Shown piece by piece: positions 16,048-64,000 of a DNA stretch of 64,000 nucleotides (within the stretch, counting starts at the first letter, position 1; every line of letters begins with the position of its first letter). The notes beneath the pieces are model-generated. The model did not search any database. It worked only from the letters and a program-made list of their open reading frames with translations, and was not told where the DNA came from. A program made the translations under genes and the position numbers. Origin of the DNA: Escherichia phage OLB35; the sequence record MH992122.1. One strand, written 5' to 3'.

Positions 16048-16122
16048 TCCCGTATTATTTGGTTTGTGCCATTATATACATCAATCTCAAGTTGTGTTTT
16101 GTATGCTTTAAAAACGAAGAAA

Positions 16123-16136
16123 GGGGCCGAAGCCCC
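16123..16136 (-). terminator. Terminator hairpin GGGGC-UUCG-GCCCC downstream of hoc
   Basis: On the minus strand the hairpin is followed by UUUCUUCGUUUUU. Confidence 0.65.
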
Positions 16137-16142
16137 TTACGA

Positions 16143-17273
16143 TTATGGATATGTATAGATGATACCAGTTTCCAAAGCAGTTTTATGGATGATGTATCCA
16201 TTACGTGATTCTTGAACATCAACTTCTGGATAGTCTTTCATCATCTTCTGAAGAGTGTAACGATCCAGGTAGTATTTACTATCTGGATCTTCAGTTTTCC
16301 AATCTTTACCTTCTTCAGTCATTTTTTGGATTTCATCCATAACCCACCAACCGCACCAGATGTAAGCTGAAGTACGATGTGGAAGAGGATGAACATAAGG
16401 TAATTCACCTTCTGGTTCAATTGGAGTCCGTTCAGCAATAACAACTTCAGCGGTTGAACTAATTGTCTTTGAAGTATAATTATCTTTAGTTAATACTGCT
16501 TCAACTTTAATTGTATGAGTACCCGCTGAGGAGGTATCAATACTGTAAGTATCGGTAGAATTACTTTCTGCTACGTTGTCTTTCTTCCAAGTATAAACAA
16601 TAGCAGTACCACTAGGTTGACTGCTTACAGATGCTGTTAAAGTTGTTGCTGTTCAATAATGTTGCCGCCGGAGAAGCCGGAGTAACAGCGATGGTAGAAT
16701 TATTGTCTTCTTATTAACAGTGATAGTTGTTGACGCTTCAGCTATTTCTGGATTTCCTGCGGAAAGTGCCGTAATTTGGGCAACACATTTAATTTTTTTA
16801 ACTCCGCTTGTGGTAGGAGTGTAATTGAATGTAGCAGAAGTTGCTTCGCTCACAGGAGAACCGTCAACGTGCCATTGATACGTAGCAGATGCGCCTGACG
16901 GTTGAGAAGCTAAAGCCGCAGTAAATTTAACAGCTGTTCCGATTACTCCAGCAGCAGGGCTATCAGGAGTTATAGCCAGAGTAGTTGTCTGAGTTTTATT
17001 TTTAACTGTGATAGTTGCAGTAGTTTCTGCTGTTTCAGCTTCAGCTTCTGGAACTGTATTTGTTGCAACTACTTTAATAGTCTTTTGACCGGCAGGTCCT
17101 TTTAGAGTATAATCCATTGTAGCAGCCGTAGAATCCTGCGCTATACCATCCAAAGTCCAGACGTTAGTAATAGTACCATCTGGAGTTTCACCTGCAGGTG
17201 TAGCAGTGAATGTTTGTGAACCTCCAATAACCCCTGTAGGAGTTAAAGGAGATAACGTGACAGTGAACGCCAT
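16143..17273 (-). pseudogene. hoc: hoc (highly immunogenic outer capsid protein) interrupted by two compensating frameshifts
   Basis: Total span is 1131 nt, equal to T4 hoc. The N-terminal 189 codons are Hoc-like (Ig-like repeats). About 17 codons then read out of frame and end at an in-frame TGA (16653-16655). The original frame is Hoc-like again from 16652 through the conserved C-terminus (ELPYVHPLPHR..WCGWWVMDEIQKMTEEGKDW...). Confidence 0.8.
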
Positions 17274-17282
17274 AAGTTATCC

Positions 17283-17951
17283 TTATTTTAATGTTACGAA
17301 AGAAGAATTACGAGTTTCACGAATTAGAACTGATCCATCGCGATTAATATAATAAATTAAGCTAAATAATGTTTGGTGGGCAGAAGCGTGCACAAAACTA
17401 GTTGGGCGAGATTTCCAATCTGGGGTTTCGGCTATCCATTGATAAATCCACCAAGGAACAGTAACATACCCTGGGCCTTTGCCTAATTTAATGAGTGTAG
17501 GACTAAAATTTTCAGGCAGAACAAATTTTACTTCTTTATTTACCTCTGACTCAGGCTCTTTTTCAGATTCAACAACCTGAGTAATTGCTTCTTCGAATTT
17601 ATCATGGTCGAATTCTTTTTCTTGTTCGACAACTTCTAATACTTCAACTTGGTCTGTTGGAGAATCAAACAACAGAATAGCTTCTTCTTTAACTTCTTCG
17701 TTGGTGAAATTAACACCGTCCACATCATCTGCGGCAGTAATTAAATCGGTGATAGATAATCCATCAGTTTCAGGTAACGGTTCATCAGCCAGTGCGTTAA
17801 GAGCTTCTTCGATATCAATAACAATATTATCGAATGATTTTGTTTTCTTAACACTAATGCCAAATTGTTCCGCATATTCAAACAGTTTAGCTTTGGCTTC
17901 CTTTTTATCAGAAAGAGCACGTAACTCTTCAATATAGTCTTTATCGATCAT
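17283..17951 (-). CDS. inh: Inhibitor of prohead protease (Inh)
   Basis: 222 aa (T4 about 226), acidic; position between hoc and uvsW. Confidence 0.8.
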   Translation of the reverse strand: MIDKDYIEELRALSDKKEAKAKLFEYAEQFGISVKKTKSFDNIVIDIEEALNALADEPLPETDGLSITDLITAADDVDGVNFTNEEVKEEAILLFDSPTDQVEVLEVVEQEKEFDHDKFEEAITQVVESEKEPESEVNKEVKFVLPENFSPTLIKLGKGPGYVTVPWWIYQWIAETPDWKSRPTSFVHASAHQTLFSLIYYINRDGSVLIRETRNSSFVTLK

Positions 17952-34049: not shown

Positions 34050-34053
34050 TTTA

Positions 34054-34341
34054 TTAGAACCTCATCTGAAAGCCATGTGATTTAACATTACCGCCGCCAA
34101 TATCAGAAATGTTAATTTCACTTGCAATCGAAGGATCGATGTCAATTTCACGATTAAGTTTAGTGATAGCTAAAGTATCATGCCCATTTACTGTACGAAA
34201 CTCCAAAGGACATACTACGTTGACATAGTGTTTAATTGACTCGCTAGTAGGTTGCAAATGGACCGGAAGGTCTTTAGGTGCTTTAGAGAAAACAACTTCA
34301 CAAAAGTTTTTGCGGGTATCAAAATAAGTGGTCATAAACAT
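34054..34341 (-). CDS. Hypothetical protein
   Basis: 95-aa ORF in the early 30.x cluster. Confidence 0.5.
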   Translation of the reverse strand: MFMTTYFDTRKNFCEVVFSKAPKDLPVHLQPTSESIKHYVNVVCPLEFRTVNGHDTLAITKLNREIDIDPSIASEINISDIGGGNVKSHGFQMRF

Positions 34342-34820: not shown

Positions 34821-35189
34821 TTATGCAACTTTAATCCAATTGTCTAAATTTAAAACACCTTTGGCTTTCATTTTTTCGATCAGGTTATCTGCTGTAATGC
34901 GTCCATTTTGATACCATGTAACATCTTCAGAGTAACCAGTTTCTTCGTCAACATATGTTTCTGAACGAATTTTACCTGTAATAATAGTTTTTAATTCGTA
35001 TGTGTCACCTGTGAAAAAGTTTGCTAACACAATTTTCCAAGAGAAATCATTTGAAGGACCTTCAGGAGTTGTACAACCTACGATCTCAAATTGCTCTTTG
35101 TATAACATCCACTGGAATTCTTTAATTTCGATAGCTTTATAACCGTCGTGGTCTTTACATTTGATGTATGAGTTCAGGTTGATTTTCAT
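34821..35189 (-). CDS. Hypothetical protein
   Basis: 122-aa ORF preceded by the early promoter motif at 35232-35260. Confidence 0.55.
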   Translation of the reverse strand: MKINLNSYIKCKDHDGYKAIEIKEFQWMLYKEQFEIVGCTTPEGPSNDFSWKIVLANFFTGDTYELKTIITGKIRSETYVDEETGYSEDVTWYQNGRITADNLIEKMKAKGVLNLDNWIKVA

Positions 35190-35231
35190 TTTGTTCTCCA
35201 GTTTGTTTTATTGATTAGGTGGTACAAGTCT

Positions 35232-35260
35232 ATAGTAACACATCCTACAGGAGAGTAAAC
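35232..35260 (-). promoter_or_regulatory. Early-type promoter (GTTTAC / TACTAT)
   Basis: GTTTAC, 17-nt spacer, TACTAT upstream of the ORF starting at 35189. Confidence 0.55.
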
Positions 35261-35296
35261 ATTTTTTTAAACTTTTTCTGCCCTAAACGCACAAAA

Positions 35297-35314
35297 GGGA
35301 GACCGAAGTCTCCC
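35297..35314 (-). terminator. Terminator GGGAGAC-UUCG-GUCUCCC after the small basic ORF
   Basis: Minus-strand hairpin followed by UUUUGUGCGUUU. Confidence 0.7.
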
Positions 35315-35319
35315 TAAAA

Positions 35320-35496
35320 TTATGCAACAACCTTTCCAAAACGAGAAGCATCATCTCGAAGAACTGCACGTGCTCTGCGCATGATCTTCTCAACTGTTTG
35401 ATTAATACGAGAGTTCGACCCACGCTTGTATCCAGCGCGTTTAGAATCACCGACTTTCTTTTCAACTGCTTTCTTTGCTTTAGTTTGTTTTGCCAT
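35320..35496 (-). CDS. Hypothetical small basic protein (58 aa; below the 60-aa cut-off of the ORF track)
   Basis: Hand-translated: MAKQTKAKKAVEKKVGDSKRAGYKRGSNSRINQTVEKIMRRARAVLRDDASRFGKVVA; AAAGAG SD-like upstream; followed by terminator hairpin 35297-35314. Confidence 0.45.
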   Translation of the reverse strand: MAKQTKAKKAVEKKVGDSKRAGYKRGSNSRINQTVEKIMRRARAVLRDDASRFGKVVA

Positions 35497-35713
35497 TATA
35501 AATTCTCTTTAAATGAAAATGCAGGACTTATTGACATTGCCTGCTCAAGCCCTCAAGGGGAACATAGGTTTTGGATATTTAACGACAGGATAACCATAAA
35601 CCCGTCATCATACCATATAGCTCTTATCTGTTGGGGGTAGCATGCACTTACCGCTATAAGAACAACATTCAAGAGGTACACCGTAAAACTGCCGGGGTCT
35701 TATTCTAAAATAT

Positions 35714-35731
35714 AATGATTCGCAAATCATT
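35714..35731 (-). terminator. Terminator hairpin AAUGAUU-UGCG-AAUCAUU plus U-tract after rIII
   Basis: 7-bp stem followed on the minus strand by AUAUUUUAG. Confidence 0.6.
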
Positions 35732-48666: not shown

Positions 48667-49880
<1,214 letters not shown>

Positions 49881-58509: not shown

Positions 58510-59634
58510 ATGGAAAAATTTATGGCAAGGTTTGGACAGGGATACGTCCAAACGCCGTTTTTATCGGAAAGCAATTCAGTTAGATTTAAACTAAGTATAG
58601 CGGGTTCATGCCCGCTTTCAACAACTAATCCGTATATTTTGTTCCAAAATGAGCCTTTAGGGTTGCAGTCTTTTGGTATTGGACTAAATGTTAGGGTAAT
58701 AAATCCGGAAAATGGAACTATAGTTGATAGTAAATTATACAATTTTGCGCCTACAAATAATGCAACTTCGGCCGCGTTTATTTCGTTTGTTAATACATAC
58801 GCAGATAATTTCATTTTCGCATTTATTTCTAATAACAAATTTAATTTGCCGCCAGAAATAATTGAATGGTTTAAAGCTGCTGGGAGTTCAGTTATACCGT
58901 CAATTGAAGTTGCTAGTCTTGTTGATATTTCATATTCAGCGTTTTATGTTTCAGGTAAAAATACTATTGCATTAGAACACATAAAATACAGTAATAAGAA
59001 AACAATTTCTGATTACGCAACTCCATTAGATATTGTATATGACTCTATTGCTGATATAGGTGCTACCGGCTATCCTAGACGTACATATGAAGCTCTAGAA
59101 ACGTTTTTATCTCCTGTTGGAGGAACTAACAATGAAATAAAAAGGGTGCCTACATCATCCCTTGTTACTCCTATCGCAAACTATGGATTAAAGCCTACAG
59201 ATTTTCTTTATTTGAAATTTCAATTAATGGCTGATGAAGCATTACTAGAGGAAGGAACCACAAGACTTTCAATTCGTTTCTTTAAGACTCCATCTAGCTC
59301 TCCTATATTGTCTAAAGATATAAACTTTGACGGAACTGCTGGAGTGTGGAAGTTATACGAAGAATATGTTGAAATACCAGCCGAAGCCGATGGCTTTACA
59401 GTATATTGTTACCGTACGGCCCCAGTCGGTCAAGGTGGACTAAGAAATGTTATTTTCACTGAAGTATCATGTAACGGAAGTATAGCAAAACCTGCCGAGT
59501 TTGGCCTAAATGGTATTCGTGCTAATTACATCGATGAATCATTAATTGGTAATGATATAATGGACTTGCCTACCCAGTTATCTAACGACACGGGTAAGGT
59601 ATTTGGGCAAGAATTTAAAGAGTACACAGAATAA
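58510..59634 (+). CDS. 35: Long tail fibre hinge (knee) protein gp35
   Basis: 374 aa (T4 372). Confidence 0.9.
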   Translation: MEKFMARFGQGYVQTPFLSESNSVRFKLSIAGSCPLSTTNPYILFQNEPLGLQSFGIGLNVRVINPENGTIVDSKLYNFAPTNNATSAAFISFVNTYADNFIFAFISNNKFNLPPEIIEWFKAAGSSVIPSIEVASLVDISYSAFYVSGKNTIALEHIKYSNKKTISDYATPLDIVYDSIADIGATGYPRRTYEALETFLSPVGGTNNEIKRVPTSSLVTPIANYGLKPTDFLYLKFQLMADEALLEEGTTRLSIRFFKTPSSSPILSKDINFDGTAGVWKLYEEYVEIPAEADGFTVYCYRTAPVGQGGLRNVIFTEVSCNGSIAKPAEFGLNGIRANYIDESLIGNDIMDLPTQLSNDTGKVFGQEFKEYTE

Positions 59635-59635
59635 A

Positions 59636-59651
59636 GGAGACTTCGGTCTCC
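59636..59651 (+). terminator. Terminator hairpin GGAGAC-UUCG-GUCUCC plus U-tract after gp35
   Basis: Followed by UUUUCGCG, then the gene 36 late promoter. Confidence 0.7.
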
Positions 59652-59659
59652 TTTTCGCG

Positions 59660-59667
59660 TATAAATA
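59660..59667 (+). promoter_or_regulatory. Late promoter TATAAATA (gene 36)
   Basis: Exact TATAAATA directly after the gp35 terminator hairpin. Confidence 0.7.
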
Positions 59668-59693
59668 CTTTAATATTAATAAGGAGACACGAA

Positions 59694-60350
59694 ATGGCCG
59701 ATTTAAAAGCCGGAAGTACAGTTGGTGGTTCCGTCATATGGCATCAAGGCAATTTTCCTTTAATGCCAGCTGGCGATGACATCCTATATAAAACATTTAA
59801 ATTATACACCGAATATAACAAGCCAAAAGCGGCTGATAACGATTTCGTATCTAAAGCAAACGGCGGGACATATCTCAAAAAGGTAATCTTTAACGAAGGT
59901 GTTGCAGTCAAAACAGCTGATGACCAAACGAATGGTATTTTTTCTGGTGGTGGTGACGCCGCGACATTCGACCAAACAAACATGGATATTGTTTCATGGT
60001 ATGGTATTGGGTTTAAATCATCTCAAGGTACCGGTGAAAGAACTGTTGTAATTGATACTCGCACCGGTAATATAAGTTCTAAAGGCGTTATTGAAGCATC
60101 TCAATTCAGAGCCACAACGTTAGCACCTTTAAATAATTATGACCTTACTCGCAAAGATTATGTTGATAGTCAAATAAATACAGTTAATGCTAATGCAAAC
60201 AGTCGTGTACTCCGTTCAGGAGATACTATGACCGGGGCGCTAACCGCCCCAAACTTTTTCTCACAGAATCCTGCATCTCAACCCTCGCATGTTCCGCGAT
60301 TTGACCAAATTGTTATTAAGGATTCTGTTCAAGATTTCGGCTATTATTAA
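59694..60350 (+). CDS. 36: Long tail fibre distal connector gp36
   Basis: 218 aa (T4 221); late promoter at 59660. Confidence 0.9.
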   Translation: MADLKAGSTVGGSVIWHQGNFPLMPAGDDILYKTFKLYTEYNKPKAADNDFVSKANGGTYLKKVIFNEGVAVKTADDQTNGIFSGGGDAATFDQTNMDIVSWYGIGFKSSQGTGERTVVIDTRTGNISSKGVIEASQFRATTLAPLNNYDLTRKDYVDSQINTVNANANSRVLRSGDTMTGALTAPNFFSQNPASQPSHVPRFDQIVIKDSVQDFGYY

Positions 60351-60358
60351 GAGGACTT

Positions 60359-63300
60359 ATGGCTACTTTAAAACAAATACAATTTAAAAGAAGCAAAACT
60401 GCAGGAGCACGTCCTGCTGCTTCAGTATTAGCCGAAGGTGAATTGGCTATAAACTTAAAAGACCGTGTACTTTTTACTAAAGATGACCAAGGAAATATTA
60501 TTGATCTAGGTTTTGCTAAAGGTGGTAGTATTGACGGGAATGTTATTCATACTGGCAATTACAACCAAACTGGTGATTATACTTTAAATGGCGTCTTCAC
60601 ACAGACGGGTAATTTTAATTTAACTGGTATTGCTCGAGTAACTCGCGATATTATTGCCGCCGGGCAGATTATGACTGAAGGCGGTGAACTTATTACAAAA
60701 AGTTCAGGCACAGCACATGTTCGTTTTTTCGATAACAATAGTCGCGAACGCGGAATCATTTATGCCCCGGCTAATGATGGTTTAACTACACAAGTACTTA
60801 ATATCAGGGTTCAAGACTACGCCGCTGGTGATGAAAGCACCTATGCATTTTCGGGCAGCGGACTATTTACTTCACCTGAAGTATCAGCATGGAAATCTAT
60901 TTCGTCTCCACAAATTCTGACCAACAAAGTCATTACAAATGGGAAGAAGACCGGCGATTATGATATCTATTCATTATCAAATAACGTTCCATTGTCAGAA
61001 AGCGAAACGGCTATTAACCACCTCCGTGTCATGCGAAATGCTGTTGGTTCTGGTATTTTCCACGAAGTTAAAGTTAATGATGGAATAACCTGGTATAGCG
61101 GAGATGGATTAGACACTTATCTTTGGTCGTTTACCTGGAGCGGTGGAATTAAATCCAGTCACTCTATTTCTATCGGTTTACCAGGCGGTAATAAAGATTA
61201 TTCAATATTAGGACCATCTTCGATTGCTCTTGGCGATAATGACACCGGGTTAAAATGGCACCAGGATGGATATTTCCATACAGTAAACAATGGAACAAGA
61301 ACTTTCATCTACGGCCCTGCAGAAACACAAAGCCTTAGAAAAATGGTTATGGGTTATTCTCCAGATGGGCTTCTTATGACAACGCCACCGACAGAAAACT
61401 ATGCTTTGGCTACTGTTGTTACTTACCATGATAATAACGCATACGGTGACGGTCAAACTCTTTTAGGATATTATCAAGGCGGTAACTATCATCATTATTT
61501 TCGCGGTAAGGGTACTACAAACATTAATACTCACGGCGGTTTGTTAGTTACTCCAGGTAATATTGATGTTATTGGCGGTTCTGTTAATATAGATGGTAGA
61601 AATAATTCTTCTACACTAATGTTTAGAGGCAACACAACAGGATACAGCTCGGTTGATAATATGGATATTAAAGTTTGGGGTAATACGTTTGTTGATCCAA
61701 GCGGAGGTATCCGTAAAAACGTCATGGAAATTTCTGATGCAACTAGTTGGATGAGCTATATTCAAAGACTTACAACAGGTGAAGTAGAAATGAACGTTAA
61801 CGGTTCATTTGAATCATCTCGTGTTACTGCTGGAGATAGGGGAGTTTACACAACAGGCGAAATTTCATCTGGAGCAGTGAATGCGCTTCGTATTTGGAAC
61901 GCAGATTATGGAGCTATTTTTAGACGTTCAGAAGATAGTCTTCATATTATTCCAACTGCTTACGGTGAAGGTAAACACGGCGATATCGGTCCACTTCGCC
62001 CGTTTAGTATGGCTTTAGATACTGGTAAAGTTACTATTCCAGATTTACAATCAAAATACAATACGATCACTGCGAACGGCTATATTAAATTTGTTGGCCA
62101 TGGTGCAGGCGCTGGTGGTTATGATATTCAATATGCTCAAGCAGCTCCTGTTTTCCAGGAAATCGATGATGATGCTGTAAGCAAATATTATCCTATTGTT
62201 AAGCAGAAGTTTTTAAACGGTAAAGCAGTTTGGTCTTTAGGTACCGAAATTAATTCGGGTACATTCGTTATTCATCATCTGAAAGAAGATGGATCACAAG
62301 GCCATACATCTCGTTTTAATCAAGACGGCACAGTTAATTTCCCTGATAACGTTCTGGTCGGCGGCGGCGAAGCTGCTATTGCTCGTAATGGTAATATTTT
62401 CTCGGATATTTGGAAAACGTTTACTTCAGCAGGCGACGTAACTAATATTCGCGATGCAATAGCTACTCGTGTTGCTAAAGAAGGCGATACGATGACAGGC
62501 GCTCTTTGGATTAATAAAGATGCTGCTGGAATAGTTCTTAATCCTCCTTTGGCTAGTGATTCATCATTTATTCGTTCTGATACGGCCGGGGTCAATAATT
62601 GGTATATTGGTAAAGGCGGTGCCGACAATGGTCTAGGTTTTTACAGTTACATTACACAAGGCGGTGTATACATAACAAATACCGGTGAAATATCGCTTTC
62701 TCCTCAAGGACAAGGAACATTTAATTTTAATAGAGACCGCCTTTATATAAATGCTAGTCAATGGATTGCACATAAATCTGGCGCTTGGGGCGACCAATGG
62801 GGCTTAGAAGCTCCTGTATTTGTGGATTTTGGTAGCGTTGGTAATGATAGTTATTATCCTATTATCAAAGGAAAATCTGGTATTACTAATGAAGGTTATG
62901 TATCTGGTGTTGATTTCGGTATGCGACGCATTACTAATACATGGGCACAAGGTATTATCCGTGTAGGTAATCAGGAAAACGGTTCCGACCCACAAGCTAT
63001 CTATGAATTTCACCATAGCGGTACTTTTTACGCACCCGGTCTGCTTAAATCTAGTCGTGTTTCTGCGGGTGGTGGTGACCCTGCGTGGGGTAGTCCTTGT
63101 ATTGTATTAGGTGACAACGATACCGGATTTCTTTGGGAAGCAGATGGTATTTTCAACGCATATGCAAACGGCCAAGGCGTATTCAGTTTTAGAGCTGGTC
63201 TCGCACAAACGTTCGGTAACGTATCGTTAAACGTTAACGCAGGTATGTATGTTCGTGATAACATTGATGTTAACGATGTTTATATCCGTTCTGATATTCG

Positions 63301-63610
63301 TTGTAAGTCAGAAATTAAGCTTATTAAGAACGCTCAAGAGAAATCTAAACTCTTAGGCGGCTATACTTATCTGCTTAAAAACTCTGTTACAGACGAAGTT
63401 AAACCGTCTGCAGGTTTGATTGCTCAGGAAGTTCAAGAAGTATTGCCCGAACTTGTTTCTGAAGATAAAGAGACCGGACTGCTTCGTTTGAACTATAACG
63501 GTATTATCGGTTTAAATATTGCTACAATCAACGAGCATACTGACGAAATCAAGGAATTGAAATCCGAAATTGCTGAGTTGAAAGCATTAATTAAATCATT
63601 GATAAAATAA
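60359..63610 (+). CDS. 37: Long tail fibre distal subunit gp37 with C-terminal intramolecular chaperone domain
   Basis: 1083 aa; last ~106 aa (from SDIRCK...) carry the endosialidase-type chaperone signature [15 protein letters not shown]. Confidence 0.9.
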
Positions 63611-63641
63611 TAAAAGGGCCTTCGGGGCCCTGGAGGTTTAT

Positions 63642-64000
63642 ATGGCAGTAGTAGGAATTCCTGGTTGGATTGGGACTTCAGCCGTCGCTGAAACAGGCCA
63701 ACGTTGGATGACAGCAGCTTCTAGAGAATTGCGTCTTGGTAACCCGTCTTGGATGTCACAATTTGCTGGTAGGTCCCGTGAGATTATTCATACGCTTGGA
63801 GCTGACCATAACTTTAATGGTCAATGGTTCCGAGATAGATGTTTTGAGGCGGGTAGTGCGCCTATAGTGTTTAATATCACCGGAAATTTGGTATCATATT
63901 CTAAAGACGTTCCTTTATTCTTCATGTATGGTGATACACCAAATGAATATGTTACTTTGAATATTCATGGTGGAGTTCATATGTGGGGACGAGGTGGTAA
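63642..64000 (+). CDS. 38: gp38 receptor-recognising adhesin, T2/K3 type (3-prime end outside the window)
   Basis: N-terminus [22 protein letters not shown]....[43 protein letters not shown] matches the conserved N-terminal domain of T2-type gp38 adhesins, not T4 gp38. Confidence 0.85.

Follow-up and report, generated by a model that had tools for sequence, protein, structure and literature searches.

Organization of the hoc locus

The DNA analysed here (the window) is a stretch of 64,000 nucleotides from Escherichia phage OLB35 (MH992122.1), a phage of the species Mosigvirus utam. Over 20 kb the window is 97–98% identical to the genomes of phages CCU7, Mizar, and phiC120, and it represents a Mosigvirus (RB69-like) genome. 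Positions 16143–17273 of its minus strand hold hoc, a disrupted gene for the head decoration protein Hoc (highly immunogenic outer capsid protein), which runs for 1131 nt from ATG to TAA. Our reference system was Hoc of phages T4 and RB69, together with the protein family PHROG 1149 and the structures PDB 5VF3, 8T1X, and 8T9R. The gene order inh-hoc-24.3-24.2-rnlB is that of RB69, with inh upstream and 24.3, 24.2, and rnlB downstream, so that hoc of OLB35 occupies the same genomic slot as its T4 and RB69 counterparts. The gene begins directly after the stop codon of inh (17283–17951), and a Shine-Dalgarno sequence, AAGGA (17280–17284, minus strand), can be read upstream of its ATG, overlapping the inh stop codon. 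The translation-initiation signal of hoc, the ATG with its Shine-Dalgarno sequence, is intact. Just 3′ of the hoc stop codon lies a terminator-like hairpin, AAGGGGCTTCGGCCCCTT, with a T-rich tail (16110–16138, minus strand); phage NRG-P0074 has an annotated terminator in the corresponding position.

Both parts of the locus belong to the Hoc family. The 5′ open reading frame (ORF) matches PHROG 1149 with an E value of 1.5e-49 and the 3′ part with an E value of 9.5e-67, and a repaired translation aligns end to end (residues 1–377) with T4 Hoc chain 5vf3_Z (E 4e-154). The first 189 residues of the 5′ ORF align with Hoc of RB69, Mizar, and CCU7. They comprise Ig-like domain 1 (residues 1–93; 16995–17273, minus strand) and Ig-like domain 2 (residues 94–189; 16707–16994, minus strand), the latter including an intact A7 run at 16793–16799. 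The rest of Ig-like domain 3 (16434–16652, minus strand) regains the ATG frame but is untranslatable. It is followed by the region of the C-terminal domain (16146–16433, minus strand), which matches PHROG 1149 and is identical to relatives at no fewer than 29 of every 30 nt throughout. The capsid-binding C-terminal domain is still encoded in OLB35, and its conserved motifs are readable in the translation. Judged by homology, neighbourhood, and C-terminal domain, the locus at 16143–17273 is a T4-type hoc gene; it differs from hoc of T4 and RB69 in that its reading frame is broken after domain 2.

Reading frames and the two annotated pieces

Read from its ATG, hoc encodes MAFTV...TITVNKKT for 189–190 codons. 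There follow 16 out-of-frame codons, IILPSLLLRLLRRQHY (16656–16703, minus strand), and a TGA at 16653–16655. Past this TGA, the ATG frame again encodes Hoc (TATTLTASVSSQPSG..., EPEGELPYVHPLPHR...) from position 16652 to the conserved C-terminus, ending ...GIIYTYP before the TAA. These readings agree with the initial annotation, made from the sequence alone, which had described 189 Hoc-like codons, about 17 nonsense codons ending at the same TGA, and a Hoc-like continuation of the original frame. Its further proposal, that an alternative frame is Hoc-like across the garbled segment, also stands: the −1 frame over the gap reads NNSTIAVTPASPAA, which resembles RB69 Hoc. The −1 counterpart of the 16 codons is NNSTIAVTPASPAATL, and across the gap as a whole NNSTIAVTPASPAATLL agrees with RB69 Hoc NNSTVAVTPASPAA at 13 of 14 residues, a match too close for the Hoc-like reading to be due to chance.

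The 5′ ORF consists of 206 codons and the TGA (16653–17273, minus strand) and encodes Ig-like domains 1 and 2 plus the 16 out-of-frame residues. Its product is 100% identical to AYR04099.1, deposited as ‘large head outer capsid protein’ of Escherichia phage OLB35. A second ORF of 65 codons starts at an internal Met (MDEIQK...; 16143–16340, minus strand) and corresponds to AYR04098.1 of OLB35, ‘capsid and scaffold protein’; it matches PHROG 21694, a family of 66 positions, over residues 105–169 of the hoc 3′ part. The OLB35 record thus annotates the two pieces of hoc as separate CDSs of 206 and 65 amino acids. The first in-frame start codon 3′ of the TGA is that same Met (Met 312), 105 codons downstream. 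With the TGA at 16653–16655, OLB35 has no single continuous ORF that joins the Ig domains to the capsid-binding domain. Given the TGA at the junction and the lack of a start codon before Met 312, restoration of the frame does not rescue Hoc.

Anatomy of the lesions

To place the frame changes, we compared OLB35 with relatives covering at least 80% of a 136-nt query (n = 31, 30 of them listed) and examined in detail an alignment of eight sequences, seven of them intact Mosigvirus hoc genes. The affected segment measures 139 nt in all 31 relatives (30 listed) and 136 nt in OLB35. The difference is spread over two sites. At site 1 (16702–16710, minus strand), OLB35 shows a 1-nt loss and an A>C substitution: relatives have AATAAGAAAGAAAAT where OLB35 has AATAAG-AAGACAAT, and the core reads AAGAAAGAAAAT in the seven intact relatives versus AAG-AAGACAAT in OLB35. 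TH12 and MK047717 have exactly the resulting sequence as their T4-type linker, AAGAAGACAAT. We considered whether site 1 might be a recombination joint with this linker; the comparison offers two informative differences only, and such a joint is indistinguishable from a 1-nt loss with one substitution.

At site 2 (16653–16662, minus strand), OLB35 shows a 2-nt loss accompanied by at least four substitutions, with GCAGTAGAAATTGGAACA in relatives versus GCAACATTA--TTGAACA in OLB35. In its narrowest form, the difference is one of 10 nt (ACATTATTGA, with the in-frame TGA inside) versus 12 nt (GTAGAAATTGGA). A motif scan of the 120 Hoc proteins retrieved found SPxx, three residues, and Gly in every intact Ig domain matched; the spacing from SPxx to Gly needs 12 nt, and site 2 of OLB35 has 10. 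The TGA at 16653–16655 stands where relatives have the conserved Gly codon, and it may have arisen from GGA by G>T or as a by-product of the 2-nt loss, the two alignments being indistinguishable. Since an intact version of this exact allele is absent from the databases searched, the ancestral sequence of site 2 is one that we infer. Between the two lesions, the DNA of OLB35 is identical to that of phage UGJNEcP1.

The two shifts are, by this alignment, −1 and −2, net −3, about 50 nt apart. The initial annotation had pictured hoc as split by two compensating single-nucleotide frameshifts about 50 nt apart. The split and the spacing are borne out; the sizes must be corrected on the 31-relative comparison, and the compensation does not rescue the protein. 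The alignment with related hoc genes, which had been suggested as a means of pinpointing the indels, places them at 16702–16710 (−1) and 16653–16662 (−2). Only one of them lies at a short A run, where both had been expected: site 1 is AAA>AA, while site 2 is TTATT/GAAC, without an A run. The length of 1131 nt had also been equated with that of intact T4 hoc. The figure is right, but because the net loss is 3 nt, an intact OLB35 allele would measure 1134 nt, and the present agreement with T4 is coincidental.

Mosaic structure of the allele

We painted the OLB35 gene in 30-nt steps against its Mosigvirus relatives. Gene nt 1–170 are of RB69 type. The next segment (nt 170–498, beginning at about nt 170) is 100% identical to Mizar, FP43, TH12, and CCU7, and nt 499–612, which contain site 1, correspond to the end of RB69 domain 1 and the start of domain 2. 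In the protein, domain 2 is accordingly of Mizar type through KKIKCVAQ, after which it takes on the sequence that closes RB69 domain 1 (LSAGNPEIAEASTTITVNKK). In nt 613–690, with site 2 at the 5′ edge, the best agreement with anything known falls to 16–26 of 30 nt. Gene nt 691–870 resemble RB69 domain 4 or CCU7 domain 5, and nt 871–1131 encode the conserved C-terminal domain. The lesions flank the most divergent patch of the gene.

The divergent patch has a structure of its own. Gene nt 622–690 form a patchwork of RB69 domain-2-type and domain-4-type bases, giving way to pure domain-4 type from nt 691. In a three-way alignment, nearly every base 3′ of site 2 is that of RB69 domain 2 or domain 4, in alternation with at least three switches. 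Homeologous recombination between the paralogous domains, accompanied by patchy correction, would be expected to leave such alternating patches. The site-2 patch itself, ACATTATT (8–10 nt), matches neither domain 2 nor domain 4, and a search of RB69 domains 2, 3, and 4 for its donor turned up no convincing one.

The number of Ig domains varies among related genes. Hoc genes measure 1131 nt in TH12 (three domains, T4-type), 1416 nt in RB69, 1419 nt in Mizar and FP43, and 1704 nt in CCU7; the nearest relatives of the OLB35 gene span 1416–1704 nt, and shorter in-frame variants of 164 and 283 amino acids occur in complete genomes. A CCU7-like five-domain gene less two domain lengths would measure 1134 nt (1704 − 570), and hoc of OLB35 is a further 3 nt short. 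The combination in OLB35 of an RB69 N-terminus, a Mizar middle, the end of RB69 domain 1, and an RB69 domain 2/4 hybrid sets it apart from T4 and RB69 Hoc and was seen nowhere else. On this painting, hoc of OLB35 is a unique mosaic of modules with three Ig domains.

We searched widely for other copies of the allele. Pieces of hoc of 291, 136, 106, and 53 nt, compared by BLAST with a collection of 50,697 phage records that does not contain OLB35, retrieved no allele closer than 88.5% identity. The repaired Hoc protein, compared with 5.8 billion proteins, reached at best 73% full-length identity, and no intact version was among them. Allele-specific 23–38-mers were not found in exact-pattern scans of IMG/VR, nor was an allele-specific 31-mer in JGI metagenomes and GTDB genomes, and an exact look-up of the 206-residue product in a contig index gave no match. 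The only exact match to the allele was OLB35’s own 206-residue CDS, a single cluster member on a single contig, and contigs with an identical Inh protein carry other hoc alleles. A literature search for OLB35 found no paper. As only one assembly carries the allele, the lesions of OLB35 are unreplicated.

A real lesion or an artefact of the record

The initial annotation had left two readings side by side, a naturally Hoc-deficient phage and sequencing indels. The evidence now leans toward the first, albeit from a single assembly. When the 86 CDSs of Mizar were compared with the window by tblastn, hoc alone was split; the other 85 showed no frame split, and incomplete matches were confined to the window edge, to accessory genes differing in content, and to divergent tail-fibre genes. 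The other indels relative to Mizar and phiC120 whose length is not a multiple of three are all intergenic, at gene junctions, or in highly divergent stretches, and four of the eight indel sites that were re-checked match phiC120 exactly. Given that random indel error would mostly fall in coding sequence, this pattern suggests real variation filtered by selection. With the remaining CDSs unsplit and the indels non-coding or shared, general assembly quality does not explain the lesions in hoc. The flanks of the lesions are 97–100% identical to intact relatives and contain no further stop codons, which suggests that the lesion is recent. Overall, these comparisons indicate that OLB35 hoc probably carries a real loss-of-function lesion in a recently inactivated gene, and we infer that the lesions are present in the phage DNA and not just in the record.

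The two or three small losses fall within 58 nt of the least conserved, repeat-related part of the gene, the likeliest place for a local consensus or assembly error, and this clustering speaks against a real lesion. A local error of sequencing, polishing, or consensus, possibly from a mixed population or from mis-mapped reads of the Ig repeats, would mean that the real hoc is intact at 1134 nt. The single assembly suits such an error, as do the contraction of a short A run at site 1, the possible contraction of a G or T run at site 2, and the fact that most 1-nt differences between the window and Mizar are contractions. The lesions also lie at the edge of a 75-nt patch that alternates between domain-2 and domain-4 bases, which a consensus of mis-mapped repeats could mimic. 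Yet the other 85 Mizar CDSs are unsplit, even though most homopolymers lie in coding sequence (the intact A7 run of hoc is one), and half of the re-checked intergenic length variants are common to phiC120. A 2-nt loss with at least four neighbouring substitutions is atypical of a homopolymer miscall, and the junctions lack the overlaps of k-mer length that would yield de Bruijn graph chimeras. We therefore regard a local error as rather unlikely. A collapsed-repeat misassembly, in which the true gene has four or five Ig domains like RB69 or CCU7 and the hybrid domain 3 and its frameshifts are products of the assembler, would account for a length that is that of CCU7 hoc less exactly two domain lengths and 3 nt, and for the patchwork of domain-2- and domain-4-type bases in the fusion zone. 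However, in-frame Hoc variants of 164, 283, 376, 472, and 568 amino acids occur in many independent genomes, so that changes in domain number clearly occur in nature. The fusion zone offers an assembler no long stretch of exact identity between domains 2 and 4 to collapse, and the patch ACATTATT matches neither parental domain. Collapse is thus very improbable, and with this small share included, an artefact of the record of any kind is still the less probable case, if one of some weight.

We also considered whether a full-length Hoc might be made by recoding, either through read-through of the TGA or through two frame changes, a programmed −1 shift at site 1 and its reversal at site 2. In favour of recoding, a ribosome slipping by −1 after ACA would produce exactly KKT-NNSTIAV, the shifted segment stays open up to the TGA, and the 86-nt region has a slightly more favourable fold than shuffled sequence, if marginally so (z = −2.0). 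Set against this, site 1 (AAT AAG AAG ACA ATA) does not offer a slippery heptamer of the form X XXY YYZ at AAG AAG ACA ATA and does not permit tandem re-pairing. A TAA stands in the −1 frame just upstream of site 1, and the ribosome would have to shift again, in the opposite direction, 50 nt farther on. The two-frame arrangement is absent from relatives, all 31 of which (30 listed) keep a single frame and are 3 nt longer. Judged by the general leakiness of UGA in E. coli, read-through would account for no more than a few percent of protein, in which the first strand of domain 3 would be scrambled. We consequently rejected programmed frameshifting and read-through as extremely improbable.

Proposed origin and consequence for the virion

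Taking the lesion as real, we propose that recombination among Ig-domain modules built a mosaic allele with three Ig domains. This allele has lost 1 nt where its hybrid third domain begins and, about 50 nt downstream, 2 nt amid clustered substitutions. Ribosomes starting at the intact ATG would make two Ig domains and 16 wrong residues and terminate at the TGA. What remains of domain 3, like the capsid-binding C-terminal domain, is in frame but without a start and would not be made. Hoc attaches to the centre of gp23 hexamers through its C-terminal domain (residues 281–376 of T4 Hoc) and can be dispensed with in the laboratory (PMC10385173). As a product ending at residue 206 has no capsid-binding domain, OLB35 virions should carry no Hoc on their capsids, and the 206-residue stub, if stable, would lack an anchor and remain unattached, free in the lysate. 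The dispensability of Hoc for laboratory growth would explain why the lesion is tolerated. A real lesion would make OLB35 a Mosigvirus that naturally lacks Hoc, which is relevant to mucus adherence, immunogenicity, and particle dispersion in therapy or capsid display. The allele also illustrates how scars that are out of frame can result when Ig modules are shuffled within and between hoc alleles.

The two lesion sites are mutually complementary. On the gene strand they form a perfect 7-nt inverted repeat, CAATAAT (16699–16705) and ATTATTG (16654–16660), where intact relatives have 4 nt of complementarity at most in the same positions; among random pairs of 16-nt windows drawn from this genome at equal spacing, 0.9% attain 7 nt. 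Ripley and co-workers reportedly described frameshift and substitution mutations templated by quasipalindromes in T4 rIIB, and the paired lesions of OLB35 may likewise stem from one such event, which we take as a weak lead. A simple template switch accounts for the 7-nt complementarity and the A>C; it leaves the 1-nt loss at site 1 and the change GTAG>AC at site 2 unexplained. A hairpin of the two sites is absent from the predicted minimum-energy fold.

Disrupted hoc genes in other phages

Disrupted hoc is not rare in public records. In T6, hoc is 1132 nt long and has a single +1 near GTTAAAAAG in domain 2, after which the product ends ...SGVKKN. In T2/SV76, hoc is broken into pieces of 117 and 141 amino acids, and the 141-residue piece also ends before the usual Hoc C-terminus. 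Hoc of ACG-C40, UPWr_E2, and CE1 is truncated right after ...TSGVKK. PHROG 21694, whose 66-position profile covers the C-terminal fragment of Hoc, is a further precedent. As in OLB35, the gene disrupted in T6 and T2/SV76 is that of a dispensable decoration protein, the frameshifts are small, and the flanks are conserved. The lesions themselves differ, T6 having a single +1 in domain 2 and T2 several lesions, whereas OLB35 has a −1/−2 pair at the start of domain 3 and an intact A7 run. Closer parallels exist within the genus. In Mosigvirus a20, a change of A8>A7 is followed 395 nt downstream by A5>A6, so that the length stays at 1416 nt with stops between, a frame-restoring pair like that of OLB35; in NRG-P0074, the change is A8>A9. 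The lesions of a20 and NRG-P0074 are thus changes in the length of A5 and A8 tracts, while those of OLB35 affect a run of 2–3 nt and a non-repetitive site with clustered substitutions.

Set beside these cases, hoc of OLB35 probably represents ordinary decay, one more dispensable decoration gene knocked out by small frameshifts. By its sequence it is distinct in place and manner, with a −1/−2 pair at a recombination-scarred domain boundary and not at a long A tract. A bolder reading would make hoc of T-even-type phages a locus that is recurrently, possibly reversibly, switched off, with Hoc loss adaptive in some niches as opposed to neutral decay and OLB35 as one ‘off’ variant. Frameshifts may in that case cluster at A tracts (the A8 of RB69-type domain 1 and the A run of GVKK in domain 2) and at scars of Ig-module recombination. 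The lesions of OLB35 do not have the form of on/off switching at a homopolymer tract: they sit at AAA>AA and TTATT/GAAC, and the A7 run at 16793–16799 is intact. We consider recurrent switching improbable as an account of this allele, and ordinary decay remains our preferred reading. The case adds a data point to an under-remarked pattern; its practical value is modest, and it opens no long-standing question.

Records of such genes also differ in how they are annotated. The pieces of T6 and T2/SV76 hoc, like those of OLB35, appear as short CDSs or go unannotated. The T6 hoc sequence is identical in AP018814.1 and MH550421.1, so that its lesion, unlike that of OLB35, is replicated in two records; one of them annotates two CDSs and the other none. 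In OLB35, the 206- and 65-residue ‘capsid’ CDSs should be read as two pieces of one pseudogene.

Repeats at the hoc lesion sites

The two places at which the OLB35 hoc frame is broken are linked by a perfect 7-nt inverted repeat (CAATAAT/ATTATTG on the gene strand), with arms at window 16699-16705 and 16654-16660 that overlap the 1-nt loss of site 1 (16702-16710) and the 2-nt loss of site 2 (16653-16662), respectively. This repeat is absent from intact relatives, and when geometry was kept equal, only 0.9% of random window pairs reached 7 nt of complementarity. The pair may have been left behind by a mutation templated on a quasipalindrome. Site 1 also lies in a 19-nt direct repeat of 84% identity (window 16554-16572 and 16693-16711; GGTAGAATTACTTTCTGCT and GGTAGAATTATTGTCTTCT), through which its motif, AATTCTACC, has a copy 139 nt away within the part of OLB35 hoc that resembles RB69 Ig domain 4. 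Slipped or unequal recombination could act on this direct repeat.

Frame disruption in other hoc genes

In the classical phages T6 and T2 and in the isolates ACG-C40, UPWr_E2, CE1, and SV76, hoc is truncated at or just past the A-run (...TSGVKK) in Ig domain 2 (see also proteins P0147, P0146, P0143, P0148, P0159, and P0176). For T6 (hoc at 901-2032 of the retrieved locus in both cases), the same +1 change is found in two separate records, AP018814.1 and MH550421.1. The A-run looks like a frameshift hot spot. According to the literature, hoc is universally present.

Changes in A-tract length also occur in domain 1 of RB69-type hoc, where the A8 tract (RB69 hoc nt 181-189) is A7 in phage a20 (hoc at 220-1635 of its locus) and A9 in NRG-P0074 (hoc at 301-1717). 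The a20 gene carries a second change, A5 to A6, 395 nt downstream of the A8-tract site (RB69 hoc about nt 584), which returns the gene length to 1416 nt and leaves many stop codons between both changes. Either the tracts in these two phages have slipped in the phage itself, or their homopolymers were read wrongly in sequencing.

The Hoc tail and domain-number variation

A 65-aa minus-strand ORF at window 16143-16340 (AYR04098.1, annotated in OLB35 as 'capsid and scaffold protein') comprises merely the Hoc tail. It matches PHROG 21694 (E 7.3e-41), a family of 66 positions named 'Hoc-like head decoration' that appears to gather C-terminal Hoc fragments of this kind.

In-frame Hoc proteins vary in length by entire Ig-domain units of about 95 aa, ranging from one to five domains, as illustrated by P0172 (164 aa), P0124 (283 aa), P0041 (376 aa), P0010 (472 aa), and P0002 (568 aa). 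In CCU7 Hoc, Mizar-type domains 1-2 are cleanly fused to RB69-type domains 2-4. Hoc domain shuffling through unequal recombination appears to be common.

Differences from Mizar and phiC120 elsewhere in the window

Comparison with Mizar covered window 34052-34335 and 59000-64000. Several small Mizar accessory CDSs (34862-35059, 35114-35728, and 48728-49033 of the Mizar locus) have no match in the OLB35 window, nor do Mizar gp38, holin, and asiA within these 64 kb, and the OLB35 distal long-tail-fibre gene shares only about 35% identity with Mizar gp37. Such plasticity is usual for the host-range module. In the phiC120 RefSeq entry (NC_055718.1), N bases in the tail-length determinator gene region, around locus 26380, produce an apparent 1-nt indel relative to window 25771; the N bases are a quality flaw of that reference and not of the window.
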